A stretch of 64,000 nt of DNA from Lytechinus pictus (Eukaryota), in the NCBI RefSeq assembly GCF_037042905.1, contig NC_087251.1, positions 3,536,001 through 3,600,000 on the forward strand, given 5' to 3'. The first letter of the stretch is position 1. Each line of letters opens with the position of its first letter. Made by a program: the position numbers and the translations under genes. The notes under the pieces are model-generated. The model made no database searches. It was not told where the DNA came from and saw only the letters and a program-made list of their open reading frames with translations. Shown piece after piece: positions 3,060 to 64,000 of this stretch.

Positions 3060-4357
3060 ACCAGGCTGAAGCCAGCGCACAAACCCAGCGCACAGAATAT
3101 ATTGTAGCAAGCCAGCGCACAAACCCAGCGCACAGAGCTATCGCGATACAAACCGCCCTACACCGTGTGCGTAGTCTATTAGTCGCAGACCCTAAATACA
3201 GCTTAAATTCTCAAACGTCTCGAATATTGTCATAATGCGCACGGAAATGGTATAGTAAAAAGGCATAGTTACCGGAACTTACAGATGATTGAAAATATGG
3301 AACTTCCATAATGCACTATTCCACATTATGATTGCTTCAAATATTAGTATATGACTGATTTGAATATAATCATTAAGAATTGAATGGAGTATGTTTCTAT
3401 ATGGCATGAGTGCAGCTGAAAATAATACAGATAAAGAAGAATCAAACAAAGTTGGTAAAATGTAAACAATATCGGACAAGGTTAATAGAGTTATGATATT
3501 TTAAAGATCCGCATTTCGGCCAGTTCTATATGCATTTCTTCTTTAACATTCAATGGAGAAAAGTAATCTCTCCTGTATATTCCCACTTTTTTAATCACAT
3601 GAATTCATGATTATTCAAATTTCCTCCTCCTATAGAATTACAAATATTGTATTAAAACTATTTAATGCATTTTCTCATTAATTTATGGACATTATTTTAA
3701 TAAGAGACATCACATGATTAAAAGATGATTTCATGCAAGAGCATTTTATAAGCAAAACGAAGTTGGAACACGTCATCATGATCACTTCAAATAGATAGTT
3801 ATGACTGCGTGCATTTTATTTTCACAAAATACTGCTTACTTCAAAATTCAGTATCAGAGTTTGATGATTGCTTCCGGATTCTCTTTTGTAAATTCAACTC
3901 TTATTAATAACTATACCCAGTTGTTGTGTGTCCGGACAGGTTGTGTGTCCGGACGATCAATTTTAGAAAGTCATTTTGAAAAATTTACAAGCGATCGAAG
4001 TTTCATCAATTTTTAGTACAAAATGTTAGGAAACAATATAAAGAACACAACAGAAGATGATTACAGCTATTGAATTCATATTTTTAGTGTAATCCAAAGA
4101 CAAAAAAGAAGGCTTCAAAAATATAAAGTGTCCGGACACCCGACCTCCCATCCTATTTCCAGCGCGGAGTATGCAACCATTTTATGTGTTCTGAGTTTCC
4201 TATGTGAATCAATATAGTTTTTGCTTATTCCCTAAATAAAATGCATCAGTTAATAAATTTCATATGAAAGATCAGTCCCTCTCGCATGGGCCTTGGAACA
4301 GGGGGGGGGGGGTAGACCACATTAAATTCTCAGAAAAAATTACATAACAACTTTGAA
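3060..4357 (+). repeat. Left unique terminal inverted repeat of the giant element (~1.3 kb)
   Basis: Reverse complement of 38870-40169 with only a handful of substitutions and one 2-bp indel seen. Mirror ORFs in the track (3801..4016+ / 39211..39426-; 3279..3479- / 39750..39950+) confirm this. Confidence 0.95.
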
Positions 4358-5065
4358 GCACTACCTGCGTTTCGGGGCATCTTAGACGCCGTCCCCTTTT
4401 TTGTGCGCCATTTAAAATTCACCCCTAAATCGATGAAGTGATTAATGAAGATAACTCTGGTTAATTTTCATGACATAAAATGTTATTTTCGATTAGCGGC
4501 TAATTTATTACCAGCTCCCGGCCACCAAAGCAAAAATGTTGGAATACACGTACACACATAGCGCGCGCGATATTTTCGTCAACGCACCCCGACATTTCGG
4601 GGCACCGTAGACCCCGTCCCCTTTTGCTGTGCACCAATGTTCACCCCTAGACCGATGAAGTGATTAATAAAGATCAATTTGGTTGATTTTCAAGACATAA
4701 AATTGTGATTTTGATTAGGGGCGAATTTATTACCAGACCAAAGCGGAATTGTTGGAATACACGTACATAATATAGCACGCCATAATAGCAAGTGCCGTAT
4801 TTTCGTCAATGCACCCCCACCTTTCGGGGCATCGTAGACCCCGTCCCCCTTTTCTGTGCACCAATGTTCACCCCTAGATCGATGAACTGATTAATAAAGA
4901 TCAATTTGGTTGATTTTCAAGAAATAAAATCCTGATTTCGATTAGCGGCGAATTTATTACCAGACCAAAGCGGAATTGCTTGAATACACGTACATAATAT
5001 AGCACGCCATAATAGCAAGTGCCGTATTTTCGTCAATGCACCCCCACCTTTCGGGGCATCGTAGG
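4358..5065 (+). repeat. About three outer satellite monomers (first ones diverged), part of the left TIR
   Basis: 227-bp periodicity (tttcgtcaat at 4801 and 5028). The diverged first monomers are mirrored almost exactly at ~38162-38869. Confidence 0.9.
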
Positions 5066-6606
5066 CAGCGGCGTAACAGGGGTCGGTGGCCAGGGGGGGC
5101 AAGAGCCAAAAATTTCCCGGTCATATCATGGAACAGGCAATGGCGTCATAAGGCAAAAATTTTGAGGGGGCGATATGGCGTATCGGGCAAATATATATAT
5201 ATATAAAAGCGAGCGAGCAAAAATTTTTGACATTTTTATTGCAAAAATCAAATTTTGTGATAGATTTTGACATAATGTTAAAAAGATGATATCATATTTC
5301 ACCCTCCTCTTTCCTTTTTTTCTCTTTTTTTTTGTACGCCACGGTGAACAGGATTTTTGTTATGATTGTGAGCATCAGGGCGAAGCTCTATATGCTCGAG
5401 GGGGCCGAATATGGCGCTTCTGGCAAGAAGTAGCTTAATGAAGGTCCCGAGCGAGCGAAGCGAGCGAGATAAAAAAATCACCTTTTCATGAGAATCTAAC
5501 ATGAAGATAGATTTTAACGTGATATTCAGAAAAAATTAATACACTTTCCTTTCTTTCCTCATTTTTTTTTGTTTGGTTGTAGAACTTTTTGGGGCCATGG
5601 TCCAAACTCATCCATATAACAGTGCTTTATGGGTGGGGTCCAGGGCAGAGCCCCGGAACCTCTTGATATCAAAGCCATTTTTAACCTTACAGAGGGCCAC
5701 TTATTTTAATCAAATTGCGTGTATATTTATATAGCTTTAACACAACACATAAATTCAATGCAGTTGTGTATCGTAATCATCCAAATATTGTGAGGGGCAC
5801 ACCATAGCAAATGTGTGAAAATTTGTAAAAAGTCGCCAGCGAGCGAAGCGAGCCAGAAAAAAATGGCCTGTTAAAATGAAATTCTAATTATGTGATAGAT
5901 TTTTACATCATTATAGTAAATATCATGTCATACATTTTTTTTCATTCATCTCATTTCGCTGCCTCCTTTATTTTCTTTTATTTCCCCTTGAAAGCTTAAT
6001 GCAGGAAGGGTCCATATAGGGGCCCGTTATAGAACCCATTAAAGGTTACAGATGAAGAGCCCCCACTGCACGGGGTCTTGACTCTTGGACAGAGCCTTTG
6101 GAGATTTAGCAAGTTTATGATAGACTTTCATACGACATTATGCTATATACCATCCATTTTTCTTCCCGCTAGTTATCTCAATCCTCGGCAGCCCGGTAGT
6201 GTACGTTATCTTGTCCCTATTCCTTAATTTCCAATTTAGATTTTAGCTAATTCCATTCTGCATTTATTTCCCGCTTTTGTTTGCCTTTTTGTAATCTTTA
6301 ATTTATTTCCCTGTCTTACTAATCATGCTAATGTAATTGTATATCGGGGCGAATTGTTCTTTCTCACTTGTTCGTTTTTCCTTCCTTTTCCCGTTATCTT
6401 TCCGTTTCCGTTTTTTATGTTTTTTCTTAGTTTTCTTTTCCCTTTTCCTTTCCCTTTCCCCTTCCCCTTTCCCCTTTTTTCTTTCCTTTCCCTTTCCCTT
6501 TCTTCCCCCTTTTTTTTCTTTTTCCCGTTTTTTTCTTATTTTCCCGGTGAGCTCCGCCAGGGGGGGGCAGCTTGCCCCCCCTGCCCCCCCGCCTGTTACG
6601 CCACTG
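5066..6606. mobile_element. hAT-like non-autonomous element (1.54 kb) inserted in a satellite monomer of the left arm
   Basis: TIRs CAGCGGCGTAACAGG ... CCTGTTACGCCACTG. Flanks ATCGTAGG (5058-5065) and ATCGTAGA (6607-6614) match 7/8 as an 8-bp TSD. G/C-run subtermini and a pyrimidine-rich tract at 6340-6545. Absent from the mirror position in the right arm. Confidence 0.88.
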
Positions 6607-24600: not shown

Positions 24601-27420
24601 TAATAAAGATCAATTTGGTTGATTTTCAAGAAATAAAATCCTGATTTCGATTAGCGGCGAATTTATTACCAGACCAAACCGGAATTGTTGGAATACACGT
24701 ACATAATATAGCACGCCATAATAGCAAGCGCCGTATTTTCGTCAATGCACCCCCACCTTTCGGGGCATCGTAGACCCCGTCCTCTTTTTCTGTGCACCAA
24801 TGTTCACCCCTAGATCGATGAAGTGATTAATAAAAATCAATTTGGTTGATTTTCAAGAAATAAAATCGTGATTTCGATTAGCGGCGAATTTATTACCAGA
24901 CCAAAGCGGAATTGTTTGAATACACGTACATAATATAGCACGCCATAATAGCAAGTGCCGTATTTTCGTCAATGCACCCCCACCTTTCGGGGCATCGTAG
25001 ACCCCGTCCCCCTTTTCTGTGCACCAATGTTCACCCCTAGATCGATGAAGTGATTAATAAAGATCAATTTGGTTGATTTTCAAGAAATAAAATCCTGATT
25101 TCGATTAGCGGCGAATTTATTACCAGACCAAACCGGAATTGTTGGAATACACGTACATAATATAGCACGCCATAATAGCAAGCGCCGTATTTTCGTCAAT
25201 GCACCCCCACCTTTCGGGGCATCGTAGACCCCGTCCTCTTTTTCTGCGCACCAATGTTCACCCCTAGATCGATGAAGTGATTAATAAAGATCAATTTGGT
25301 TGATTTTCAAGAAATAAAATCGTGATTTCGATTAGCGGCGAATTTATTACCAGACCAAAGCGGAATTGTTGGAATACACGTACATAATATAGCACGGCAT
25401 AATAGCAAGTGCCGTATTTTCGTCAATGCACCCCCACCTTTCGGGGCATCGTAGACCCCGTCCCCCTTTTCTGTGCACCAATGTTCACCCCTAGATCGAT
25501 GAAGTGATTAATAAAGATCAATTTGGTTGATTTTCAAGAAATAAAATCCTGATTTCGATTAGCGGCGAATTTATTACCAGACCAAACCGGAATTGTTTGA
25601 ATACACGTACATAATATAGCACGCCATAATAGCAAGTGCCGTATTTTCGTCAATGCACCCCCACCTTTCGGGGCATCGTAGACCCCGTCCCCCTTTTCTG
25701 TGCACCAATGTTCACCCCTAGATCGATGAAGTGATTAATAAAGATCAATTTGGTTGATTTTCAAGAAAAAAAATCCTGATTTCGATTAGCGGCGAATTTA
25801 TTACCAGACCAAAGCGGAATTGTTTGAATACACGTACATAATATAGCACGCCATAATAGCAAGTGCCGTATTTTCGTCAATGCACCCCCACCTTTCGGGG
25901 CATCGTAGACCCCGTCCCCCTTTTCTGTGCACCAATGTTCACCCCTAGATCGATGAAGTGATTAATAAAGATCAATTTGGTTGATTTTCAAGAAATAAAA
26001 TCCTGATTTCGATTAGCGGCGAATTTATTACCAGACCAAACCGGAATTGTTGGAATACACGTACATAATATAGCACGCCATAATAGCAAGCGCCGTATTT
26101 TCGTCAATGCACCCCCACCTTTCGGGGCATCGTAGACCCCGTCCTCTTTTTCTGTGCACCAATGTTCACCCCTAGATCGATGAAGTGATTAATAAAGATC
26201 AATTTGGTTGATTTTCAAGAAATAAAATCGTGATTTCGATTAGCGGCGAATTTATTACCAGACCAAAGCGGAATTGTTGGAATACACGTACATAATATAG
26301 CACGCCATAATAGCAAGTGCCGTATTTTCGTCAATGCACCCCCACCTTTCGGGGCATCGTAGACCCCGTCCCCCTTTTCTGTGCACCAATGTTCACCCCT
26401 AGATCGATGAAGTGATTAATAAAGATCAATTTGGTTGATTTTCAAGAAATAAAATCGTGATTTCGATTAGCGGCGAATTTATTACCAGACCAAACCGGAA
26501 TTGTTTGAATACACGTACATAATATAGCACGCCATAATAGCAAGTGCCGTATTTTCGTCAATGCACCCCCACCTTTCGGGGCATCGTAGACCCCGTCCCC
26601 CTTTTCTGTGCACCAATGTTCACCCCTAGATCGATGAAGTGATTAATAAAGATCAATTTGGTTGATTTTCAAGAAATAAAATCGTGATTTCGATTAGCGG
26701 CGAATTTATTACCAGACCAAACCGGAATTGTTTGAATACACGTACATAATATAGCACGCCATAATAGCAAGTGCCGTATTTTCGTCAATGCACCCCCACC
26801 TTTCGGGGCATCGTAGACCCCGTCCCCCTTTTCTGTGCACCAATGTTCACCCCTAGATCGATGAAGTGATTAATAAAGATCAATTTGGTTGATTTTCAAG
26901 AAATAAAATCGTGATTTCGATTAGCGGCGAATTTATTACCAGACCAAAGCGGAATTGTTGGAATACACGTACATAATATAGCACGCCATAATAGCAAGTG
27001 CCGTATTTTCGTCAATGCACCCCCACCTTTCGGGGCATCGTAGACCCCGTCCCCCTTTTCTGTGCACCAATGTTCACCCCTAGATCGATGAACTGATTAA
27101 TAAAGATCAATTTGGTTGATTTTCAAGAAATAAAATCCTGATTTCGAATAGCGGCGAATTTATTTCCAGACCAAAGCGGAATCGTTTGAATACACGTACA
27201 TAATATAGCACGCCATAATAGCAAATGCCGTATTTTCGTCAATGCACCCCCACCTTTCGGGGCATCGTAGACCCCGTCCCCCTTTTCTGTGCACCAATGT
27301 TCACCCCTAGATCGATGAACTGATTAATAAAGATCAATTTGGTTGATTTTCAAGAAATAAAATCCTGATTTCGATTAGCGGCGAATTTATTACCAGACCA
27401 AACCGGAGTTGTTGGAATAC
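6607..27420 (+). repeat. Satellite array, 227-bp monomer, ~92 highly homogeneous copies
   Basis: The same phase recurs at 6841 and 20461 (13620 = 60 x 227). Copies differ only at a few recurrent substitution sites (e.g. aatcctg/aatcgtg, aaagcgg/aaaccgg, gttgg/gtttg, aagtg/aagcg). Confidence 0.98.
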
Positions 27421-28118
27421 AACTATTAAATTCGTCAATTGAAACAGTAAAATAGCCCTAATTTTTCCGCCACAGTAAAAAAATAGTTCCAAAGTCATTG
27501 ATATATCTTCCCAATTTGGGCAAAGGAAGTTCAGTAGTTACTATTTTTAGAATCAGTGTTAGATTTTTATTGATATTCATGCACTTTTGTTAATCATCAA
27601 TATCATATTATAGAAAAATCGAATGGGTTGGGTCGAACGAATATCTTTTGTATTCTTGCTGTAATTAGTCTAATGGCATCCGTAGTGCGCTTATAATCGT
27701 TCCGATGTATGAATCGCTATATAAATTGGATTACTGAATTTTAATTATTGTTACTTTTATTATCATTCTTATAGATTTCCCTCCAATTTCGTCAATATAT
27801 CAACCGACTTAATGATGTAATAATGCACTTCAACTATTTTGAGTGACCTATGAGATTAGCATTTCAATAGCCAAATTCAATTCCATTTTCTTGGCACGCG
27901 ATTTTATGGTTATCTCGTTTAAACATGTTTAAAGAATTAATGATCAAATTGAAATAGCTGAAGAAATGTTTTCAAATTAGCACTTGTACCCTCCTTGCAA
28001 ACGTGTATGAATTTTTTTTTTTAATCAAAAGATATGGACAATGTTTCGTGTTTTTTATTTTTTACTTCTTTTGAATAGTTATGGAAATGGGTTTCACTTT
28101 GATATTGATCAATGTTTA
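27420..28118 (+). repeat. Inner inverted repeat, left copy (~700 bp, non-satellite)
   Basis: Reverse complement of 30035-30743, roughly 95% identical by eye. The first ~240 bp also match 47775-48010. Confidence 0.92.
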
Positions 28119-28299
28119 CCATTTTACTGATCAATTGATCATCCATCTGACAAACGTTTATCGGACGAACTCCGTTTTGTTTAAATTTCGTAACTATAGA
28201 ATCGACTGTGGTCAATACCATGTTTCTTATAATGACAATTATAAAAAAAAAAAAGAAAAAGAAGAAGATGTTGATAAATAATGCGTTGCATCGACATAA

Positions 28300-28686
28300 T
28301 ATTACACGTGCTATATGTTATATGTATTCCAAGTATTTTACTTTGGTGGGGGCTCGTAATAAATTCGCCGCTAAATCAAGCAAATTGATCTTTATTAATT
28401 TCTTCATCGATCTAGTGGTGAACATTGATTCATCGGTGCATCGACGTATATAGCACGTGCTCTATGTATATAAATGCCATGAAACTATTTTACTTTGGTG
28501 GGGGCTGGTAATAAATTCGCCGCTGATAGAAATCAACTTTTAACGTCTTAAAGTAAATTGATCTTCATTTATCTCTTTATCGATCTAGGGATGAACATTG
28601 GTGCACAGGAAAGGGGGACAGGGTCTATAAGATGCCCCCAAAAGTAGGGATTGCATCTAACTACATAGCACGTGCTATGTATATGT
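28300..28686 (-). repeat. Decayed satellite monomers in the centre of the element (right-arm orientation)
   Basis: Recognisable motifs taataaattcgccgcta, ttgatctttattaat, catcgatctag..gtgaacattggtgcacag, gggtcta..gatgcccc, with many substitutions and deletions. Confidence 0.85.
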
Positions 28687-29808: not shown

Positions 29809-30034
29809 ATTCCAACTATTTTACTTTGGTGGCGGCCGCTGGTAATAAATTCGCCGCTAATCGAAATCACCTTTTCATGTCTTGAAAATCATTTGATTTG
29901 ATCTTCATTAATCTTTTCATCGATCTAGGGGTGAACATTGGTGCACAGAAAAGGGGGACGGGGTCTACGATGCCCCGAAAGATGGGGGTGCATTGACGTA
30001 AATATAGCCGCGTGCTATGTATTATATACGTGTA
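29809..30034 (-). repeat. Diverged satellite monomer (right-arm orientation)
   Basis: One ~226-bp monomer ending tatacgtgta directly before the inner inverted repeat. Confidence 0.88.
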
Positions 30035-30743
30035 TAAACATTGATCAATATCAAAGTGAAACCCATTTCCATAACTATTCAAAAGAAGTAACAAAAAAAA
30101 AACACGAAACATTGTCCATATCTTTTGATTAAAAAAAAAAAATTCATACACGTTTGCAAGGAGGGTACAGGTGCTAATTTGAAAACATTTCTTCAGCTAT
30201 TTCAATTTGATCATTAATTCTTTATACATGTTTAAACGAGATAACCATAAAATCGCGTGCCAAGAAAATGGAATTGAATTTGGCTATTGAAATGCTAATC
30301 TCATAGGTCACTTAAATTAGTTGAAGTGCATTATTACATCATTAAGTCGGTTGATATATTGACGAAATTGGAGGAAAATCTATAAGAATGATAATAATAG
30401 TAACAATAATTAAAATTCAATAATGCAATTTATTTAGCGATTCATACATCGGAACGATGTTAAGCGCACTACGGATGCCATTATACTAATTACAGCAAGA
30501 ATGCAAAAGATATTCATTCGACCCAACCCATTCGATTTTTCTATAATATGATATTGATGGTTAACAAAACTTGAAAAGTGCATGAATATGATTAAAAATC
30601 TAACACTGATTCTAAAAATGGTAACTACTGAACTTCCTTTGCCCGAATTGGGAAGATATATCAATGACTTTGGAACTATTTTTTTTACTGTGGCGGAAGA
30701 ATTAGGGCTATTTTACCGTTTCAATTGACGAATTTGATAGTTG
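30035..30743 (-). repeat. Inner inverted repeat, right copy (~700 bp)
   Basis: Reverse complement of 27420-28118. Confidence 0.92.
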
Positions 30744-37848: not shown

Positions 37849-38869
37849 TTGAAAATCAACCAAATTGATCTTTATTAATCACTTCATCGATCTAGGGGTG
37901 AACATTAATTGGTGCACAGAAAAAGGGAACGGGGTCTACGATGCCCCGAAAGGTGGGGGTGCATTGACGAAAATACGGCACTTGCTATTATGGCGTGCTA
38001 TATTATGTACGTGTATTCCAACAATTCCGGTTTGGTCTGGTAATAAATTCGCCGCTAATCGAAATCAGGATTTTATTTCTTGAAAATCAACCAAATTGGT
38101 CTTTATTAATCAGTTCATCGATCTAGGGGTGAACATTGGTGCACAGAAAAGGGGGACGGGGTCTACGATGCCCCGAAAGGTGGGCGTGCATTGACGAAAA
38201 TACGGCACTTGCTATTATGGCGTGCTATATTATGTACGTGTATTCAAGCAATTCCGCTTTGGTCTGGTAATAAATTCGCCGCTAATCGAAATCAGGATTT
38301 TATTTCTTGGAAATCAACCAAATTGATCTTTATTAATCAGTTCATCGATCTAGGGGTGAACATTGGTGCACAGAAAAGGGGGACGGGGTCTACGATGCCC
38401 CGAAAGGTGGGGGTGCATTGACGAAAATACGGCACTTGCTATTATGGCGTGCTATATTATGTACGTGTATTCCAACAATTCCGCTTTGGTCTGGTAATAA
38501 ATTCGCCCCTAATCAAAATCACAATTTTATGTCTTGAAAATCAACCAAATTGATCTTTATTAATCACTTCATCGGTCTAGGGGTGAACATTGGTGCACAG
38601 CAAAAGGGGACGGGGTCTACGGTGCCCCGAAATGTCGGGGTGCGTTGACGAAAATATCGCGCGCGCTATGTGTGTACGTGTATTCCAACATTTTTGCTTT
38701 GGTGGCCGGGAGCTGGTAATAAATTAGCCGCTAATCGAAAATAACATTTTATGTCATGAAAATTAACCAGAGTTATCTTCATTAATCACTTCATCGATTT
38801 AGGGGTGAATTTTAAATGGCGCACAAAAAAGGGGACGGCGTCTAAGATGCCCCGAAACGCAGGTAGTGC
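37849..38869 (-). repeat. About 4.5 left-type satellite monomers, part of the right TIR
   Basis: The sequence switches to the left-arm haplotype (ggcacttgc, aaatcaggattttatttct) and mirrors 4358-5065 plus the first monomer after 6607. Confidence 0.9.
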
Positions 38870-40169
38870 TTCAAAGTTGTTATGTAATTTTTTCTGAGAA
38901 TTTAATGTGGTCTACCCCCCCCCCCCTGTTCCAAGGCCCATGCGAGAGGGACTGATCTTTCATATGAAATTTATTAACTGATGCATTTTATTTAGGGAAT
39001 AAGCAAAAACTATATTGATTCACATAGGAAACTCAGAACACATAAAATGGTTGCATACTCCGCGCTGGAAATAGGATGGGAGGTCGGGTGTCCGGACACT
39101 TTATATTTTTGAAGCCTTCTTTTTTGTCTTTGGATTACACTAAAAATATGAATTCAATAGCTGTAATCATCTTCTGTTGTGTTCTTTATATTGTTTCCTA
39201 ACATTTTGTACTAAAAATTGATGAAACTTCGATCGCTTGTAAATTTTTCAAAATGACTTTCTAAAATTGATCGTCCGGACACACAACCTGTCCGGACACA
39301 CAACAACTGGGTATAGTTATTAATAAGAGTTGAATTTACAAAAGAGAATCCGGAAGCAATCATCAAACTCTGATACTGAATTTTGAAGTAAGCAGTATTT
39401 TGTGAAAATAAAATGCACGCAGTCATAACTATCTATTTGAAGTGATCATGATGACGTGTTCCAACTTCGTTTTGCTTATAAAATGCTCTTGCATGAAATC
39501 ATCTTTTAATCATGTGATGTCTCTTATTAAAATAATGTCCATAAATTAATGAGAAAATGCATTAAATAGTTTTAATACAATATTTGTAATTCTATATAGG
39601 AGGAGGAAATTTGAATAATCATGAATTCATGTGATTAAAAAAGTGGGAATATACAGGAGAGATTACTTTTCTCCATTGAATGTTAAAGAAGAAATGCATA
39701 TAGAACTGGCCGAAATGCGGATCTTTAAAATATCATAACTCTATTAACCTTGTCCGATATTGTTTACATTTTACCAACTTTGTTTGATTCTTCTTCATCT
39801 GTATTATTTTCAGCTGCACTCATGCCATATAGAAACATACTCCATTCAATTCTTAATGATTATATTCAAATCAGTCATATACTAATATTTGAAGCAATCA
39901 TAATGTGGAATAGTGCATTATGGAAGTTCCATATTTTCAATCATCTGTAAGTTCCGGTAACTATGCCTTTTTACTATACTATTTCCGTGCGCATTATGAC
40001 AATATTCGAGACGTTTGAGAATTTAAGCTGTATTTAGGGTCTGCGACTAATAGACTACGCACACGGTGTAGGGCGGTTTGTATCGCGATAGCTCTGTGCG
40101 CTGGATTTGTGCGCTGGCTTGCTTCAATATATTCTGTGCGCTGGGTTTGTGCGCTGGCTTCAGCCTGGT
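38870..40169 (-). repeat. Right unique terminal inverted repeat of the giant element (~1.3 kb)
   Basis: Reverse complement of 3060-4357. Confidence 0.95.
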
Positions 40170-40560: not shown

Positions 40561-40592
40561 TAAACACAGTTACTCCTGCGACATTGGTATGG

Positions 40593-41231
40593 TATGGCAG
40601 TGTGTCCAAACTTCGCGCGTGTCCATACTTCGCAGACGGTCCTTATCTCAAAAACTAGCCAATATCCTTAAAATCTGACATCATCAACGTGAAAAGCGAC
40701 CTAAAATTACCGTATAATGAAAATTTCTTTAGGATGAGTTCAGTATTCATGAAAATATTGGCAAAAGATCGGCAAATTTGTCACCGCTAGCGCCCGTTTT
40801 GAAGAAATCACAAGCATCACGATATCACCATTTTGCAAGCAGAAATCATCAAAAATGTGAGTTAAATGTGGTACTAACCGATTCTATAGCATTTTGCCAT
40901 CAATCTGATATAAATATTTCACCTTTTGAGCTTGAGTTTTGTTTAAATCTCCACAAAAGCTTTGGTGCGCGAAGTTAGGTCACACTTTTCTGAACGGTTT
41001 TCCAGGACAGCCCGCATTCGCCGATCGGAATAGAATTTTGAGATCGCGATACCGGCGAAACCCCTTGACCTACTTTACATTTTCGTCCATGATTTCATAG
41101 TTTATGATCTTGCCGTCAATGTGGTAACTATTTCTTGAATTGGTTTTGTATAAATTATGAATATTTTGTGAACAAAATTATGCCTGATGAATATTTTTGA
41201 AAAGTGCGCGAAGTTTGGACACCCCATCATA
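40593..41231. mobile_element. MITE (~640 bp) with TIRs ..GTGTCCAAACTTCGCGC; TA-flanked, possibly Tc1/mariner-like
   Basis: tatggcagtgtgtccaaacttcgcgc ... gcgcgaagtttggacaccccatcata. Sibling copies at 41284-41920 (inverted) and 42120-46215 (interrupted). Confidence 0.75.
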
Positions 41232-41283
41232 CTGACCGTACTCATTTACATTACAGTTAGGCCCCTACAGTTAGGCCTAGATC

Positions 41284-41920
41284 TGTGATGGGGTGTCCAA
41301 ATTTCACGGACTTTTCATTAATAAATATACCGATTACCGGTACCGGTATGTATCTATCAGGCTTAAAATTGTTCACAAAATATTCACAATTTATACAGTA
41401 ACAAAACCAATTCAAGAAATGGTTACCAAATTGACAGCAAGATCGTAACTTTATTCTAGGGGGTCTAATCATTGATGAAAATGTGAAGTAGGCCAAATGG
41501 TTTCGCCGGTATGGTATCGCGATCTCAAGACAAAATTCTATTCTGATCGACGAATGCGCGCTGTGCTGGAAAACCGTTCTGAAAAAGTGTGACCTAACTT
41601 CGTGGACCAAAATGTTTGTGGAGGTTTAAACAAAAACCAAGCTCAAATGGTGAGATATTTATATCAGATTGACAACCAAAATGCTATAGAATCAACCAGT
41701 AACACATTGAACTCACATTTTTGATGATATCTGCTTGCAAAATGATGATACCGTGATGCATGTTGAGAACATCCAATTTCTTTGGAACGGGCGCTAACGG
41801 TGACAAATTTGATCTCTTGATCTTTTGTCAATATTTTCATGAATACTGAACTCATCCTAAAGAAACTTACGTCGAAGGGTAATTTTAGGTCGCTTTTCAC
41901 GTTGATGATGTCAGATTTTG
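41284..41920. mobile_element. Inverted, truncated second copy of the 40593-41231 MITE
   Basis: Starts tgtgatggggtgtccaaa. The interior is the diverged reverse complement of 40670-41229 (e.g. aaaatctgacatcatcaacgtgaaaagcgacctaaaattacc). Confidence 0.8.
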
Positions 41921-47774: not shown

Positions 47775-48010
47775 TTTATCAACTCAAACAGTAAAATAGC
47801 CCTAATTCTTCCACCAGTCAAAAAATAGTTCCAAAGTCATTGATATGTCTTCCCAATTTGGGCAAAAGAAGTTCAGTAGTTACCATTTCTAGAATCAGTG
47901 TTAGATTTTCAATTATATTCATACACTTTTGTCAATCAGCAATATCAAATCGAAAAAAATTTGAATGGGTTGTGTCGAACAAATATCTTTAGCCTTCCTG
48001 TTGTAATTAG
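47775..48010 (+). repeat. Dispersed repeat fragment homologous to the inner inverted repeat of the giant element
   Basis: aaacagtaaaatagccctaatt...aaaaatagttccaaagtcattgatat..cttcccaatttgggcaaa.gaagttcagtagttac.attt.tagaatcagtgttagatttt matches 27442-27670. Confidence 0.85.
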
Positions 48011-49773
48011 GCTCATGGAACCTTCAATGTCTACAGGTTTTTATAATGAAGAGAGCCCTCTAGTGCTGGTTTTGATAATATGCTTGCTTTCCGATTAATT
48101 GTTCAGCACTAGCTTACAAGAGAATAGTTAGTGTCATACTAGGCAGTATTAGATGCACATGATCTGGTAAATGAAAGGGTAGGAAGTGAGGAAGGTTAAA
48201 AATAGTTTGTTGCTAATGTGTCACACACAGATGGAAGGTACAGTAAAGGGTTGTAAAGAAGTTTCATATTCATAGAGGCCTATATTGTAATTTCTTTTCA
48301 GGAGGGGGGGGGGGGGGGGGTCATTTGCATTGAGTATTATATGAATTGGTTTGTAAATTTTGAGGGAGGAGTTTGTTTATCAGCTTGTGTTGTTGTGCTC
48401 CGGTTATTAATTTGAATGCCCCAACAAATTTTGAGAACAGTCTGTAGTTTGCAAATTGATTTTGAAGTTGAAATTTAAAGAAATTCAAGTTTTTCAACAT
48501 TTCAGTAATTACTGTATATCCTTTGAATGATGAGGAAAATGTAGGAGGAACTATCTGTTGTTCATCATTTATTTAAGAGCACTTACTGTATATTTGTAAT
48601 TTTTTTAATGTCTCAAACGGAAGTCTTGATTGGGTTTACCATCTTTCTTGGGTATGTTTTGCTGACTCATCTTACAGTTTTGTAATGAAATCTTCATGGT
48701 TGTATTAAATGCATTTTCATGTTTTTGTAGGGTTTATTTTTGTTTAGGAGCTCACATTGTTTTAATACATGTAGTTTCATCACGTTGATTGACATACATG
48801 TAATAAATGGGCATTTAATCATTTATAAATGATTCAACAATTGTAAATCTGGAATAGCATTCCTTTGTTTAAAAACTGAAATGAAAATGCTAGTTTTCAG
48901 ATCTCTGGAAATATACAGTTATGCACTGGTTCATGTATTTTTTTTATTAGGAAAGTTTCATGGGAAATGTGAAGAACATTTATTTTAGGTGTATCATGAA
49001 TTGAGTACATGTATATTGGTATAGCTTTTGTATCAATTTTTGATGACCTTGTGATGTCAGTTCAGTGAATATCTTCTCTACCAAATAAGGTAAACTAAAT
49101 ACATGATTAGTACAATGATGCACAGTTTTCTTTAGAAAATTTTGTGTGAGTGATGCTTAGTTTAAATTGATGATGAAAATACATATTTTAAGAACTCAGT
49201 ATGCCCAGTAATGTCCTATTTACATAAATTGATCATGATGTTTAATAGTTAATTATCACTGCATTTTCATTTCTATGATTATTATTTTTGGTGTGTGTGT
49301 TTTTGTGATCAATTTGGGCTACCATTTCAATCAATCAATTTCACTTTATAAAATTGTTTATTCACTTTTGAGGTTTAAAAATATAATAAGTATAATTTAT
49401 AGAGGATGAAGAGAAAATAACAAGCAATTTCACTCCCAGTTGAATAAAAGAAAAAAAGAAAAGAAAATGGAAGGATGCCACTGCTTGAACTGCTGTCTGA
49501 GCGAAGATTGCTCACTAAAAAGACAGTCACTTTCTCCTTTTTTTGGTACCGAGAGTTTTTTCTAGGGGAACTTCCTTGATATGTTAGTTCCTGGTTGTCT
49601 GTTGCTCATAGGATATTACACACACTATGATGTATAATTCACACACAGGTTTCAAGCATGAAGTGCTGAGAGTAAGTGAGTACGAAACTGAGAGGGAGAG
49701 AGAGAGTTATATATATATATTTTTAATCACTGGTTATCTGCCATTGCCGAATGAAAGAAGTGCCTGAACAGCC

Positions 49774-49776
49774 ATG
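49774..49776 (+). CDS. Putative Met-only initial coding exon end (GCCATG|GTGAGT) of the Smaug-like gene
   Basis: The ATG is directly followed by a consensus donor, and phase 0 matches the acceptor at 51723/51724. Inference. Confidence 0.4.
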
Positions 49777-51723: not shown

Positions 51724-52126
51724 AAAGGCATACAGAAATTACCGGAGCAGCACCAGCTAAGCAGCTTATTCCCCATCGTAGACCACTGGAACCCGTTTGG
51801 TAGCTATGATGGTAGGCAAGTGAAGGGTTTTGACCCCCATTCTTCCTTCAACACTACATCTTCTTCACCCACAAACAACACCAACACCTGTAAAGCCAAA
51901 CCATCTGTACCTACTAGCAGTATGAAACCAACAGACCTATTCAGAGATCAGGTCAATGCTCTTTGGTCCTGCTTCAAGGACTGGAATGAATGTGAGCAGA
52001 CCCTGGTCCTTTACTCTCTCCTCAAAGGGGTGTCTGGAACTCAGGCTAAGTTCCTGTCCCTGGTGCTAGATCAGGCACTTGCAGAGTCAGACCTTCAACA
52101 TACAGAGAGAGAAGCAAATGATCCTG
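51724..52126 (+). CDS. SAMD4: N-terminal coding exon of a Smaug/SAMD4-family RNA-binding translational repressor
   Basis: Translation LFRDQVNALWSCFKDWNECEQTLVLYSLLKGVSGTQAKFLSLVLDQALAESDLQHTEREANDPG closely resembles the conserved Smaug/SAMD4 N-terminus as I recall it (FRDQV..[28 protein letters not shown]...EREAN.PG). Polypyrimidine tract plus CAG acceptor ending 51723. Donor G|GTAAGT at 52126/52127 (phase 1). In-frame ATG at 51922. The frame is open from 51724. Confidence 0.92.
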
Positions 52127-55251: not shown

Positions 55252-57767
55252 TATTATTAAATTTAATACAAAGTGATATGGTCAGATTCCAGGCACTGAT
55301 ATCTTATAAAATAAATTTGCATTTTTGTGGGAAGGTGGATTTGGATTCAAGTTTGCTGTGGTCTTCAGGCATGTTTATGCATCCACTTTTCAAGCTAGAA
55401 TCAGCATTTTAATTTTGAGTTATAAGTGTTTTGATTTGTTCAAAACACTTTTTTTTTTCATTTTTCATTCGCATTTATTTCATTCATAGATTGAAAATTA
55501 CAATTTACAAACATGTTGATGTAAAGGCACACAAGAAAAAGAAATAATTTATGAACAAGCAGACAGCTTAAAATTTCATTTCTTTAGATTGACATTTCAC
55601 CACACTGATCGCAAACTTACAAAAAAGTGTTTATCAGAACCTTGTTTCTCTAGAATCAGGGTTTGTTGGGGAGTATTTACAAAACCATGATCTTAAAAGT
55701 GTTTAAATTACATCAGTTGGTACATGCTTCTGGTGCAATGGAAATCTGCGAGCAAATACAGTTGCATGGTTCTGACAGGGAATTACTCCCAACTCCCCGG
55801 TTGTAATAATGACCAACAATTCGTACGTGTAACTATTTATTCAGTACTATCGCTGTTTACTCTGCTAATTTGGCATCATAACAAATGTGAAGGGACAAAA
55901 CTAACGGAACATACATGAGATGAGATGAGACATTGCTGAGCCAGAAGGACAAACAAAAATCATAACTCATGTCTTATTTATTTTCTTATATATTTTTATG
56001 TCTTACTATTATCCTCAACATGGTGGAAATTCTATGGCTGTGCCAAGGAGCTCCATACAAGTATGGTACTAGAATATTTTAAGTTGCTTGAATTTAAAAT
56101 GATAGTCAACCCAACAGCACTCACAAAAAATTTTGGAACACTGATTCTGTCTTCATAATGAAAGCATAAACTTACCCTAATCATTCCATATTAGATTTAT
56201 GTTTTTAGTGATTGTTTTTTCATATTTAATAATAGTAAATAAGCTTTTTCGGTATTGATATTTTCAATACCGGTATTACTAATTGCTTCAATACCGGTAT
56301 ACCGACTAATACCGGTGTAAATTCCCAATTCATTGTGCAAACAGTGTCCAATGTTTGTTTAGCCCTGATATGGCCTCGGATAAAGAGTGGATGCTTGCGG
56401 TCAGCTGAGGAATGCTCAGCATGGTCCGTTCTCATTGACAGAAACTTTCTCAAACATATTTTCATAGATTAAAAAAAATTAAAAATGACGAAGTTGAGAC
56501 TTGTCTTGAGCCTTGCAAGTCACCACTAACCTTAGATTTTCAAATGGAAATAATCATGATTTGTTTATTAAAGAGAGATTAGAAAATGAGAAATTATCGT
56601 ATTTCAAGTCCCAACTAGTATTATAAAGACCTGAGCAAAAAGTTATACGATCATGCTCTCTCCCGGCCCCACCGAGACGGCGAGAAAGAGTTACCTGTGT
56701 ACGTGCGCGAAATTATCTCAGCAAGCACGTGGTACAATTTATTAATCCTATCTCCATGCTGAAATGAATTAGATGTAGTCAAGTTACCAAATGCTATACC
56801 GCACCTACTCACTGCTATTTTGCTAAACTTGTGTACATGCCCCAAGTTCCAAGCACCAAATTCCCTGCTGAAATAGTCAAGGAGATTTGCGTGATTTTCC
56901 CTTCACCGATTTGGCCCCACTCATTCACATTTAGATACGCCCCTTTTTTTACCACTCACATCAACACGTGTTCGTCGAAGGTTCAAATATTGTTGACCTC
57001 AAATTTTGACATCTCGTAAATAACTTTTCTTATGTCCATTGTGTTGAACCCCCCCCCTCCCCCTCTTAGCTAACTCCCTTCAGGCCATGTTTTCTCCCTC
57101 TTGTGAATCTCCACATGTTGTCTAAAAAGTAAAAACCTCCCCCTTGACTTCTTATCCCGCGGCCGCCTCTTTCTCACTCTTTTTTCTTGATTTTGTTTTT
57201 CTTTATCTCCCAGCCCCTTAATTCCTCACTCTCTCTTTCCCATCGGCCCATCCTCTCCCCGTCACCACCCCTCTCTTACCACAAACAATCAACATCCTCC
57301 TCTTCTCAGAGTCTCGATCTTCCCCCCTTTTTTCTATTTCTGTCTTTTGCCCCCCCCCCCCAAGTCCTGGTCATCAATACTTTTTCATTTTAATAATGTC
57401 AATTCTATCTTTCACACATGCCAAAATTGAGTTGATCATCTTATCACGCCACCAGTCCATCATAAATTTAAATTAAAATCAATCCAATAGTTTATTTCAT
57501 TTTATTCATGACCGCACATGCACAAAAAGGATACATCACCCATCACAAATCACACAAATATTCCAGCCATTTTCTTCCATTCACGATCACTTCACAGATC
57601 ATTTTCAAAATAAACCAAGAGGGATTGCGTAACATTTTGTTTCCATGTTTTTTATTTATTTGTTATTATTTTTTATATTTATGTATGTATTTTTTTTTGG
57701 GGGGGGGAGGGGTGTCAAACGACTTTTGTAGCAGGCTGTATAAAAGTAAACTTGTCATAATTGAAAC

Positions 57768-58065
57768 AAGTTAAGAGCAGTCCGAGAAAAAAAACTTTCA
57801 CTAAGAAAAAAAAAGTGTTAATCCATGTGGTTTGTCTGTCGATGCCCAGCACCCCCTCCCTCCCCCCCCAAAAAAAAAGTTAAGAGCAGTCCGAGAAAAA
57901 AAAACTTGCATAAAGAAAAAAAAAGTGTTAATCCATGTGGTTTGTCTGTCGATGCCCAGCACCCCCTCCCTCCCCCCCCCCCCAAAAAAAAAAAGTTAAG
58001 AGCAGTCCGAGAAAAAAAAACTTGCATAAAGAAAAAAACAAGTGTTAATCTCTGTGGTTTGTCAG
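57768..58065 (+). repeat. Short tandem repeat, ~110-115-bp unit, ~2.6 copies
   Basis: aagttaagagcagtccgagaaaa recurs at ~57768, ~57877 and ~57992. Confidence 0.9.
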
Positions 58066-58122
58066 TCAACGCCCCAAGGTTGATACTTTGTTGAAGACAC
58101 CACGTGGTCAAAAGGCAGGCTG

Positions 58123-58263
58123 GGGAGTGTTTCAAAAAGAGTTTTGTCGGTGATTTTGTTTGTTTATAGAGAGATGTTACAAGCTATGACAAACCCTCGC
58201 ATGTGATTGGCGGAAAGCAAATCTGTTGTTGAAACCACTGAAAAATCTTCATGAAATGCTCCC
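58123..58263. mobile_element. Small MITE with GGGAGYRTTTCA ends (PIF/Harbinger-like)
   Basis: gggagtgtttcaaaaag ... cttcatgaaatgctccc imperfect TIR. TSD not evident. Confidence 0.55.
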
Positions 58264-58534
58264 ATCTCGATCGGCTTCGTTTGTTTTCTGTAGCTGTGTG
58301 CACAAGTGCATGCAGCCGATATGCACCCCATGTAGTATGAGGCGCCGAATGTACCAATATTATATAGAACAATTATTTGTTATATAATCATTATTTATTA
58401 AATAATAACTATTATTTATATATAATTTACATTTTATTTGTAAATAACTATTATATAAAATATCATTTCTAATTATTTATATATAATTCCAAGTAATACT
58501 TCATTATTTGTAAATAATAATAGTTCGACATTCT

Positions 58535-58921
58535 ATTATTTATAAATAATGATTATTTGTTTTTCATTATTTATAAATAATGATTATTTGTTTTTCATTA
58601 TTTATAAATAATGATTATTTGTTTTTCATTATTTACAAATAATGATTATTTGTTTTTCATTATTTATAAATAATGATTATTTGTTTTTCATTATTTATAA
58701 ATAATGATTATTTGTTTTTCATTATTTACAAATAATGATTATTTGTTTTTCATTATTTATAAATAATGATTATTTGTTTTTCATTATTTATAAATAATGA
58801 TAATTGGTTTTTCATTATTTATAAATAATGATTATTTGTTTTTCATTATTTACAAATAATGATTATTTGTTTTTCATTATTTATAAATAATGATTATTTG
58901 TTTTTCATTATTTATAAATAA
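58535..58921 (+). repeat. 31-bp AT-rich minisatellite (~12 copies) in the left arm
   Basis: Unit TTTTCATTATTTATAAATAATGATTATTTGT, containing the perfect palindrome TCATTATTTATAAATAATGA. Confidence 0.92.
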
Positions 58922-61900
58922 TTTGTTGAGTTTTCCATTATTTATAAATAATGATTATTTGTTAAATAATGAAAACGTCTACTTCATTATTTATAAATAA
59001 TTTTTTCGAGTGCACCATTATTCTCATTATTTATAAATAATCATTATTTAATGTTCGAGTTTTCCATTATTTATAAATAAAGATTATTTGTTAAATAATG
59101 AAATATCTACTTCATTATTTATAAATAATAATTTTGTTTCAATATCCCATTAATCATTATTTATAAACAATTTTTACAGTTTGCCATTATATACAAATAA
59201 TCATTATTTATATACAAATAACCATTATTTATTAAATAATGCCATTATTTATTAAATAATGCCATTATTTATTAAATAATGCCATTATTTATTAAATAAT
59301 GGAAAACTCGCTATAACATGCAAATGTGGGACCGCCCATGATATGAATATTCATGATGCGATTTCCTTTTTCGTGATTTTTCTTCACAAATTTTTGTCCA
59401 TTTCCTCTTCATAATGACATTTCTTGAAGCAATTTTCTAGGGATATGGTCTGATTGTAATATTCTTCATTTTCTATATAACTTCGTCTTCGTAGAAATAT
59501 CAAAAAGTGTAATTTTATACGATTTTTCCTACAGTTCACAATCCCCATAGGCGCGCGTGTACGGTAGGGACAACCGGTGAATCGACGGAGTGCTCTTCAT
59601 CGAAATACTACGTTGGTTGGTCCCCGGAAGTGGCGGGCGGAATTTAGCCCGAATCCTCGATGGAAGTCGATCAAGTGCATATGAGCTGAGAGAGTGAAAT
59701 ATCAGTGTACTTGTACAGGCCCTTCTACTTTTTATAAATATTTCTTGTTGCTTTTTTTGTTAAGTTAATTTTTCCTGGTGTAGAGATAAGTTTCAGTTCT
59801 AATAATGCACTTCAAATACATTTTGGAGTGTCTGTTTGAGGCGTTTGGGGCGATTTCACCCTGGCCCCAAAATGCTCGCAACGACAATACGGGGGCATGA
59901 TGACCCCTAAATTTTTAAAAACTTATTTTTCTATTGAAAATTATCACAAAATTCACCAAAAGTGTGCACGAAAGCCTTCGTATTTCACTTTTAAAACTCC
60001 AAAAAGTGCCCAAATGACAAGCTTGGTCGCTTCGCTGTGTCGCTTTCAACTTGAGAAAGTTTACGCGTCTGCTTCCCCCCCCCCCCCTCCTCCGAAAGAA
60101 ATTCTGTGAACGGCCATGCTCAAAAGAGCATATGGCACATTGATTTATATGTACTTTTCATTTTCGGGGGGTGGGGGCAGACGCGCGTAAACGTTCTCAA
60201 GTTGAAAGCGAGACAGCGAAGCGACCAAGCTTGTCATTTGGGCTTGGTCCCGTGGCTGTCTCGCTTTCAAGATTTTTTCGATATATCCCCCCCCCCCCTC
60301 CTCCGAAAGAAATTCTGTATACGGCCATGCTCTAAAGAGCCTGGCACATTGATTTATGTATACTTTAATTCATTTTCATTATTTTTATCTCATTATCAAC
60401 ATGGCCTTACGCAAAATTTTTTCCAGGGGGGCTGGGGCCGGAGCATATGACGCGCGTAAACTTTCTCAAAAAAATCTTGAAAGCAAGACAGCCACGGGAC
60501 CAAGCCCAAATGACAAGCTTGGTCGCTTCGCTGTCTCGCTTTCAACTTGAGAACGTTTACGCGCGTCTGCCCCCACCCCCCGAAAGAAATTCTGTGAACG
60601 GCCATGCTCAAAAGAGCATATGGCACATTGATTTATATGTACTTTTCATTTTCATTATTTTTATCACATTATCATCATGGCCTTACACAGAATTTTTACC
60701 GGGGGGGGGGGGGGGGGGGAGCAGCTAGGACGCGCGTAAAGTTTCTAAAAAAAATCTTGAAAGCGAGACAGCGACGCGACCAAGCTCAAATGACAAGCTT
60801 GGTCGCTTCGCTTTTTCAAGATTTTTATGAGAAAGTTTACGCGCGTCCTGCTCCCCCCACCCCCCCCCCCCCCCCCGGAAAAAATTCTGCGTAAGGCCAT
60901 GATGATAATGAGATAAAAATAATGAAAATGAAGTATACATAAATCAATGTGCCAGGCTCTTTAGAGCATGGCCGTATACATAATTTCTTTCGGAGGAGGG
61001 GGGGGGGGGGAAGCAGACGCGTAAACTTTCTCAAGTTGAAAGCGACACAGCGAAGCGACCAAGCTTGTCATTTGGGCACTTTTTGGAGTTTTAAAAGTGA
61101 AATACGAAGGCTTTCGTGCACACTTTTGGTGAATTTTGTGATAATTTTCAATAGAAAAATAAGTTTTTTAAAATTTAGGGGTCATCATGCCCCCGTATTG
61201 TCGTTGCGAGCATTTTGGGGCCAGGGTGAAATCGCCCCAAACGCCTCAAACAGACACTCCAAAATGTATTTGAAGTGCATTATTAGAACTGAAACTTATC
61301 TCTACACCAGGAAAAATTAACTTAACAAAAAAAGCAACAAGAAATATTTATAAAAAGTAGAAGGGCCTGTACAAGTACACTGATATTTCACTCTCTCTGC
61401 TCATATGCACTTGATCGACTTCCATCGAGGATTCGGGCTAAATTCCGCCCGCCACTTCCGGGGACCAACCAACGTAGTATTTCGATGAAGAGCACTCCGT
61501 CGATTCACCGGTTGTCCCTACCGTACACGCGCGCCTATGGGGATTGTGAACTGTAGGAAAAATCGTATAAAATTACACTTTTTGATATTTCTACGAAGAC
61601 GAAGTTATATAGAAAATGAAGAATATTACAATCAGACCATATCCCTAGAAAATTGCTTCAAGAAATGTCATTATGAAGAGGAAATGGACAAAAATTTGTG
61701 AAGAAAAATCACGAAAAAGGAAATCGCATCATGAATATTCATATCATGGGCGGTCCCACATTTGCATGTTATAGCGAGTTTTCCATTATTTAATAAATAA
61801 TGGCATTATTTAATAAATAATGGCATTATTTAATAAATAATGGCATTATTTAATAAATAATGGTTATTTGTATATAAATAATGATTATTTGTATATAATG

Positions 61901-62162
61901 GCAAACTGTAAAAATTGTTTATAAATAATGATTAATGGGATATTGAAACAAAATTATTATTTATAAATAATGAAGTAGATATTTCATTATTTAACAAATA
62001 ATCTTTATTTATAAATAATGGAAAACTCGAACATTAAATAATGATTATTTATAAATAATGAGAATAATGGTGCACTCGAAAAAATTATTTATAAATAATG
62101 AAGTAGACGTTTTCATTATTTAACAAATAATCATTATTTATAAATAATGGAAAACTCAACAA

Positions 62163-62550
62163 ATTATTTATAAATAATGAAAAACAAATAATCATTATTT
62201 ATAAATAATGAAAAACAAATAATCATTATTTGTAAATAATGAAAAACAAATAATCATTATTTATAAATAATGAAAAACCAATTATCATTATTTATAAATA
62301 ATGAAAAACAAATAATCATTATTTATAAATAATGAAAAACAAATAATCATTATTTGTAAATAATGAAAAACAAATAATCATTATTTATAAATAATGAAAA
62401 ACAAATAATCATTATTTATAAATAATGAAAAACAAATAATCATTATTTGTAAATAATGAAAAACAAATAATCATTATTTATAAATAATGAAAAACAAATA
62501 ATCATTATTTATAAATAATGAAAAACAAATAATCATTATTTATAAATAAT
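62163..62550 (-). repeat. 31-bp AT-rich minisatellite (~12 copies) in the right arm
   Basis: Reverse complement of 58535-58921, including the positions of the tttac/gtaaa variants. Confidence 0.92.
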
Positions 62551-64000
62551 GGAATGTCGAACTATTATTATTTACAAATAATGAAGTATTACTTGGAATT
62601 ATATATAAATAATTAGAAATGATATTTTATATAATAGTAGTTATTTACAAATAAAATGTAAATTATATATAAATAATAGTTATTATTTAATAAATAATGA
62701 TTATATAACAAATAATTGTTCTATATAATATTGGTACATTCGGCGCCTCATAATGTAGGCCTAGCTACGTAGCGGTGGGGCCGAGGCCTTATGCAGCGGC
62801 TAGCGGAGCTCAGACATTAGTTCAGGGGCGATGTATTCATTTCGAGGTTAGATTATCGGATTCTGATTTCATTAAATACGTTGAGAGAGCCAAACGACTT
62901 ATTGTTTTGGCTTAATTTTACTGTAAAAATACCCATAGACGACAATACAGAAGAAAATACCGGTATGATATTTTCAACTTTTGGTATGACGGTATTTCGG
63001 TATTGAAATTTCAACGGCGGTATCCATACCGGTATGCCGTTCATACCGAACGGTATTACTAATACCGGTATACCGAAAAAGCTTAATAGTAAACCTACTT
63101 CATGTGCAGGCCTACATGTGCAGGCCTACATGTACATGTTCGATAAAAATTAAGCAATTAGCTTGTTAGTAATATGGCAGGAAAAGTCAAACTGTTGAAC
63201 AGCCAATAAGCTTGTGATTTTATTGCATAGTTTTACATATATTTAGCCCAATAGATCAAATACTTGATAGTTCAAAGACAGAAATAGCAATTGCAAACTT
63301 TCTGAAAGGTTGATTATTGTTTCCTCACGAGGCAGGACATATTGAAAATGAGTCATTTTGACATGACCTCCAGTCAGGAAATAGTTCACTTCAGCCAGTC
63401 TGCAACACTGTGTAATCACACACCCTCTATACTCTCTTTTGTTCAGCTTAATATGATTTCATACTAATTAACCACTGAATTTGTAAACAATTAATCTAAT
63501 CCCGATCATGAAGAGAAGCTGTTGTTGTTTGTTTGTATGTACATGTATGCGCAATATTTACGCACACCTTCATTCTCTGCCCCAAATGTCAAAGGGAATG
63601 AAAAGAATTTAAGCACATTTATAAGAGGATTATATACAGTGATATGAATGAAATTTAAGAATAAGCTACACCAAAATTGTCTAATACATTATCAAAGAAT
63701 TTGTTTCATTTTGGTTTTCTAATTTAATGTGCAATACTGTATACATGGATGGTTATACACATTGACAATTTTGGGATTTAACAATAGTACATTGCAGCTG
63801 AATTATAGAGCAAAGAGAGATTTAGTGCTTAAAGTGGTAGCTTGTCTTATTGTAGAAATGGGCTATACTACATGTAGTTATAATTCAATTAATCATTTGT
63901 AACCAAAAACACCCAAACCACAGCGAAACCTCACATGCTTTATCCTTTAAAGTTACCTAAATTACATTTGAATCATATTGATATTGTCAGCGTTTTAGTA

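Follow-up and report, generated by a model that had tools for sequence, protein, structure and literature searches.

The 64-kb window analysed here (the whole stretch of Lytechinus pictus contig NC_087251.1 from position 3,536,001 to 3,600,000, within which all coordinates are counted) contains coding sequence of a Smaug (SAMD4-like) gene and, downstream of it, a foldback element of 4,417 bp (58336–62752). The foldback is inserted in an older repeat, very probably within a Smaug intron, and duplicated 6 bp of its target. We consider it a non-autonomous foldback cut-and-paste DNA transposon, most likely depending for its movement on an IS3EU/GingerRoot transposase (integrase-like DDE) supplied in trans. 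The element and its duplicated target consist of the following parts:

58330–58335, forward strand: left target-site duplication (TSD) ATGTAG, read from the sequence; one copy in the empty host site
58336–58499, forward strand: left terminus and terminal arm domain, beginning TATGAGGCGCC; 15% GC
58500–59305, forward strand: left tandem-repeat domain, in which 15 repeats of 31 bp are followed by degenerate and 20-bp ones
59306–60007, forward strand: left inner unique domain, containing a CpG-retaining patch of 52% GC at 59531–59720
60008–61077, no strand assigned: middle domain, about four palindromic modules of 240–290 bp strung together; non-coding
61078–61779, reverse strand: right inner unique domain, mirroring the left inner domain
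61780–62585, reverse strand: right tandem-repeat domain, differing from the left one at 1 of 806 positions
62586–62752, reverse strand: right terminal domain and terminus, ending CTCATA; marks the edge of the family in both the DNA and the RNA runs, and bears the adenosine-to-inosine (A-to-I) signal in family RNA
62753–62758, forward strand: right TSD ATGTAG, read from the sequence

The inverted arms (58336–60103 and 60982–62752; 1,768 and 1,771 bp) differ at four sites, namely a 3-bp indel at 58447 plus three substitutions (58534, 59687, and 59916), and weaker pairing extends on to 60129/60956. A preliminary description of this DNA had reported near-perfect 1.77-kb arms with about three differences; the arms and those three differences were borne out, and the fourth, at 59916, had been overlooked. 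Each arm opens with a terminal domain of ~165 bp, followed by an AT-rich tandem-repeat domain of 806 bp built around a perfect 16-bp palindrome, which occurs in 14 exact copies in the left arm and nowhere in the window outside the element. From the single mismatch between the two tandem-repeat domains it follows that the arms were equalised recently. Arm identity nonetheless gives no insertion date by itself, because arms can be homogenised. Within the GC patch of the left inner domain lie the window's sole forward-strand CCGGAAGT (59624) and a GC box (59635); the CCGGAAGT sites of the window are confined to the inner domains and, together with the GC box, point inward in both arms. We take this patch to be promoter-like, going by familiar motifs only. 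The middle domain, which the near-perfect arms overlap by ~96 bp, holds seven copies of a 29-bp core in both orientations and folds by itself (a folding prediction made without shuffle control). What would otherwise pass for a spacer is thus a chain of hairpins, a feature absent from the preliminary description. With long modular terminal inverted repeats (TIRs), internal tandem repeats, and a non-coding middle, the element has the architecture of FB-type foldbacks.

The element encodes nothing. Among the 72 reading frames listed, the 24 of at least 70 amino acids in the element and its host repeat were scanned against Pfam; none of the 24 had a family over the cut-off, and three weak matches fell under it. 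Nine matches to Rfam microRNA hairpin models were all far under the gathering score and are explained by the palindromes.

The termini read TATGAG..CTCATA and abut the ATGTAG duplication, which is exactly 6 bp long: the adjacent bases are unlike, and the inverted match halts at the last base of both termini. At a fixed junction, a 6-bp identity would arise at random with a probability of ~3e-4 given the local base composition. The right terminus and its flank (62586–64000) were compared with 4 of 24 listed sequencing runs. In the DNA run X3, one contig joins the right flank to left-flank sequence (26/28 letters, compared by eye), with ATGTAG once and no element between them. This contig, which probably represents a host-repeat paralogue, lacks the 4 nt found at 62761–62764. 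A 6-bp duplication predicted such an empty site with a single ATGTAG, and a TA duplication did not. The perfect 6-bp duplication that had been proposed is therefore confirmed at both junctions and in the empty host site.

Other copies of the element exist. In all four runs the match broke off into loose ends (62752 or 62753), beyond which three runs showed mixed flanks and X3 a single foreign one; this indicates that the end marks the boundary of a dispersed, multi-copy family. An X3 contig carries 167 bp identical to the element terminus at another site, X12 contigs (from another organism label) hold family members at ~90% identity, and the inner domain is present wholly or partly in 20 of the 24 listed runs, with no RNA run named among those carrying it. 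Hence the idea of a recently active foldback-type derivative holds for the foldback build, the multiple copies, and the mobility (empty site, loose ends), but the recency cannot be dated from arm identity alone. At 62677 in run X24, seven RNA reads exit the arm 76 bp from its end and enter unrelated sequence; their source is a family member that is short or truncated and has a different interior. The terminal 20-mer had one match in metagenome contigs (L001), limited to 20–22 bases with unrelated flanks, and was set aside as chance.

With regard to classification, IS3EU elements have TA..TA termini and usually a 6-bp TSD, and belong to a single lineage together with GingerRoot (PMC10045372; PMC6839031), which has TA..TA in 72/77 cases and a 6-bp TSD (PMC6839031). 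Non-autonomous IS3EU families exist, given that 17 of 45 in Repbase are autonomous (PMC10045372). Our element has both features, its termini following TAY..RTA. Fungal IS3EU ends read TAYGGARGY in 15/15 cases seen, of 27 rows (supplement of PMC12730594), and the element end TATGAGGC (aligned as TATG-AGGC) equals this consensus minus one G by eye. IS3EU/GingerRoot is therefore the best assignment, and we describe the element as probably IS3EU-type. Several points weigh against it. The element contains no transposase, and its 6-bp TSD was read at a single insertion, the flanks of other copies' loose ends not being pairable. Under the Repbase rule for non-autonomous elements, positions 1–11 should match a known family with one mismatch allowed (PMC4455052); compared with IS3EU-4_PGr, our element matches at 6/11 positions ungapped and 9/11 with one gap, the comparison ends being fungal and none of them animal. 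GingerRoot TIRs measure 100–150 bp (PMC6839031), in contrast with the 1.77-kb arms with tandem arrays found here. Finally, a 6-bp TSD also suits hAT6. The preliminary assignment to an IS3EU-like group thus agrees with the published signature in both ends and TSD length, while membership is unproven.

The same foldback could instead have been moved by hAT6 or by another, unclassified transposase that gives 6-bp duplications, which we regard as possible though unlikely. Many hATs start with TA, as our element does, and no transposase link was obtained. The hAT terminal consensus is YARNG, from which the element departs at position 3 (T) and position 5 (A); the hAT6 termini themselves were outside this comparison. 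hAT6 families with 6-bp TSDs are documented, falling together with animal hATs (PMC12730594), yet the element ends resemble those of fungal IS3EU. Three further candidates were discarded. Polinton/Maverick requires termini starting with AG and Ginger2/TDD requires TG..CA (PMC6839031), and our element has TA..TA; a Mutator-type foldback requires a TSD of 8–10 bp, and here it is 6 bp.

Two of the runs are stranded RNA runs depleted of ribosomal RNA, which carry organism label B and possibly do not represent the species of the window. One contributed 25 reads on 62586–64000 out of 8.7 million and the other 24 out of 8.3 million, nearly all being junction reads of other insertions, and none of them in either run continued into the flank of the copy at 58336–62752. 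Depth was zero on 62778–64000 with ~6/100 of each run read, which we do not take as silence. RNA reads supported 18 of the 38 variant rows, made up of 8 A>G, 5 T>C, and 5 other changes; the remaining 20, seen in DNA only, were excluded from the editing count. Among the 13 A>G and T>C sites, 12 occurred solely on the read direction expected of A-to-I editing, and when sites also varying in DNA were removed, 8/8 were consistent in direction. The binomial P values for these counts, 0.002 and 0.004, assume an independence of sites that does not hold. Edits in both directions are to be expected because a transcript through both arms maps onto one arm. Two consensus sequences of loose ends, built from 3 and 4 reads, differed from the arm at 10/30 and 6/30 letters, and 16/16 of these differences were A>G; these are hyper-edited reads. 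The base 5' of edited sites was never G (13/13), in a sequence too AT-rich for this to count. Our results support the conclusion that the family, rather than this locus, forms double-stranded RNA (dsRNA) and undergoes ADAR editing. The earlier proposal of a ~1.8-kb dsRNA stem serving as ADAR substrate is accordingly supported for the arms of the family, and for this copy no read was found to cross into the flank.

These RNA changes might alternatively reflect variation in the DNA of other copies, some of which may have become fixed in an edited form, which seems improbable. RNA and DNA runs came from different samples, few loci supply the reads, and 62725 also varies in DNA. Against this reading, A>G was confined to one read direction and T>C to the other at the eight remaining sites (A>G, 33/109 vs. 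0/114 read-sites; T>C, 11/48 vs. 0/46), levels at neighbouring sites in run X23 were unequal (3, 6, and 10 of 15 reads), and both DNA runs lacked those eight sites. Some observations do speak against editing: the A>G site 62725 appears in both read directions as well as in DNA, two transversions not of the editing type (62716 T>G, 62731 T>A) likewise occur in a single read direction and have no DNA support, the DNA runs derive from other individuals than the RNA, and the evidence amounts to the 25 and 24 reads from other insertions. We nonetheless favour A-to-I editing of the family arms.

Two further explanations can be dealt with briefly. A Tc1/mariner-type element with a TA duplication and a chance 6-bp match, named beforehand as what would overturn the 6-bp duplication, is very improbable: the termini do allow the division TA|TGAGG..CCTCA|TA, and the loose ends past 62752 are compatible with either parse, but it predicts an empty site in which both ATGTAG copies flank one TA, contrary to the single ATGTAG of the X3 contig, and needs a ~3e-4 coincidence. 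An assembly artefact of fold-back reads, which a near-perfect palindrome might suggest, is hardly credible when the arms differ at four sites and are bounded by a TSD, the flanks join in a known empty site, and independent runs carry the identical terminus at other insertion sites.

The setting of the element comprises a gene and an older repeat:

49774–49776, forward strand: end of the upstream Smaug exon, which the start ATG closes
51724–52126, forward strand: Smaug (SAMD4-like) coding exon, whose downstream intron carries the element
56240–63085, no strand assigned: older host repeat, the foldback's insertion target, with short degenerate TIRs; 2,423 bp net of the insert

The exon at 51724–52126 translates to residues 2–135 of Lytechinus pictus Smaug homolog 1-like with 100% identity and closes with a GTAAGT donor. 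The protein extends further in full-length models, including those of L. pictus and S. purpuratus, and no further Smaug exon lies downstream within the window. If the gene is collinear, the element would thus very probably be intronic. Against this placement stands a later RefSeq Smaug model (529 aa) that begins at residue 182 and leaves out the exon 51724–52126. The omitted exon is conserved, and the next 46 residues are missing as well. Introns inflated by repeats may have disturbed the annotation or the assembly here, and the omission leaves a small doubt on the intronic position.

The host repeat is flanked by an 8-bp duplication (ATAGTAAA at 56232–56239 and 63086–63093), whose length alone suggests a hAT-like element. 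Run X12, with high depth, confirmed its right boundary at 63085 and its great abundance, although depth ratios are not taken as copy numbers. In the X12 copies of the host repeat, the insertion site lacks a short motif found here. In the window, a 110-bp tandem repeat of 2.8 copies occurs at 57764–58074 within the host repeat. The nesting of the foldback in this older repeat was not mentioned in the preliminary description.

The window holds other repeats too. A larger foldback at 3060–40171 has perfectly complementary arms (3631–5064 / 38163–39596) and 227-bp satellite arrays, and its flanks are CACAC-rich. By eye, it also includes an inner inverted pair (~27420–28300 / 29960–30740), a module part of which is found again at 47790–48030, and an insertion with GC-rich ends (~5065–6605) that splits the left-arm 227-bp array. 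Just past it, at ~40590–41920, another inverted-repeat element with diverged arms of ~600 bp was likewise recognised by eye.

Taken together, we propose that a transposase recognises the TATGAG ends and would cut its target with a 6-nt stagger, with the 31-bp units and their palindromic core acting as additional putative transposase-binding sites. There is precedent in Galileo, where repeats within foldback TIRs are reported to serve as binding sites (cited in PMC4079207). Slippage may have lengthened the arms, and recent copying or arm-to-arm conversion may have kept them identical. In host transcripts that span a copy, the arms could pair co-transcriptionally into a long stem that attracts ADAR hyper-editing. 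For Smaug, the element is probably a near-neutral passenger that is spliced away.

Sea urchins are already known to carry foldbacks, and the majority of foldbacks in general have been assigned to Mutator (PMC4079207). The structure and function of IS3EU are described as largely unexplored (PMC11934779). A foldback with IS3EU-type ends would favour a repeated origin of the foldback build from unrelated transposons, and the tandem arrays suggest a candidate binding site that can be tested. The element family also gives a model sea urchin a neat, naturally occurring substrate for ADAR. Among the papers listed in a search that left aside Repbase Reports and most subscription journals, we found no published account of an IS3EU foldback. 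Foldbacks and the editing of young repeats are already known, and in that respect the element is fairly ordinary and holds little surprise.

In comparison with known systems, the sea-urchin TU elements likewise have long modular arms, with terminal, tandem, and inner parts, around a non-coding middle. The same build is seen in Drosophila FB, Galileo, and Tetris; Tetris (Mutator) has an 8–10 bp TSD and Galileo is assigned to P (PMC4079207), whereas our element combines a 6-bp TSD with IS3EU-like ends. It shares with IS3EU/GingerRoot the TA..TA ends, the 6-bp TSD, and first 8–9 bases like TAYGGARGY, and differs in having no transposase. Young repeats are generally edited in animals, sea urchins among them, with 86% of editing sites of S. 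purpuratus in repeats (PMC9989829). As in that hyper-editing by ADAR, clustered A-to-I changes here fall in an inverted repeat of a young DNA transposon; the kind of substrate is the same, but both arms lie inside one element. Maize Mu killer is likewise an inverted repeat of transposon origin that gives a long hairpin when transcription from a host gene reads through it, but it includes transposase sequence and silences MuDR (PMC3440606), whereas our element is non-coding. By analogy with Mu killer, copies in transcribed introns might yield 1.8-kb hairpins, and Dicer might process the share that escapes ADAR into small RNAs silencing an IS3EU transposase in trans, an improbable scenario in our judgement; if it were true, IS3EU would join the superfamilies in which foldbacks evolved, the 16-bp palindrome would become a candidate recognition site for an unstudied transposase, and the hairpins would carry the autonomous element's termini, its array of binding sites, and its promoter-like patch.

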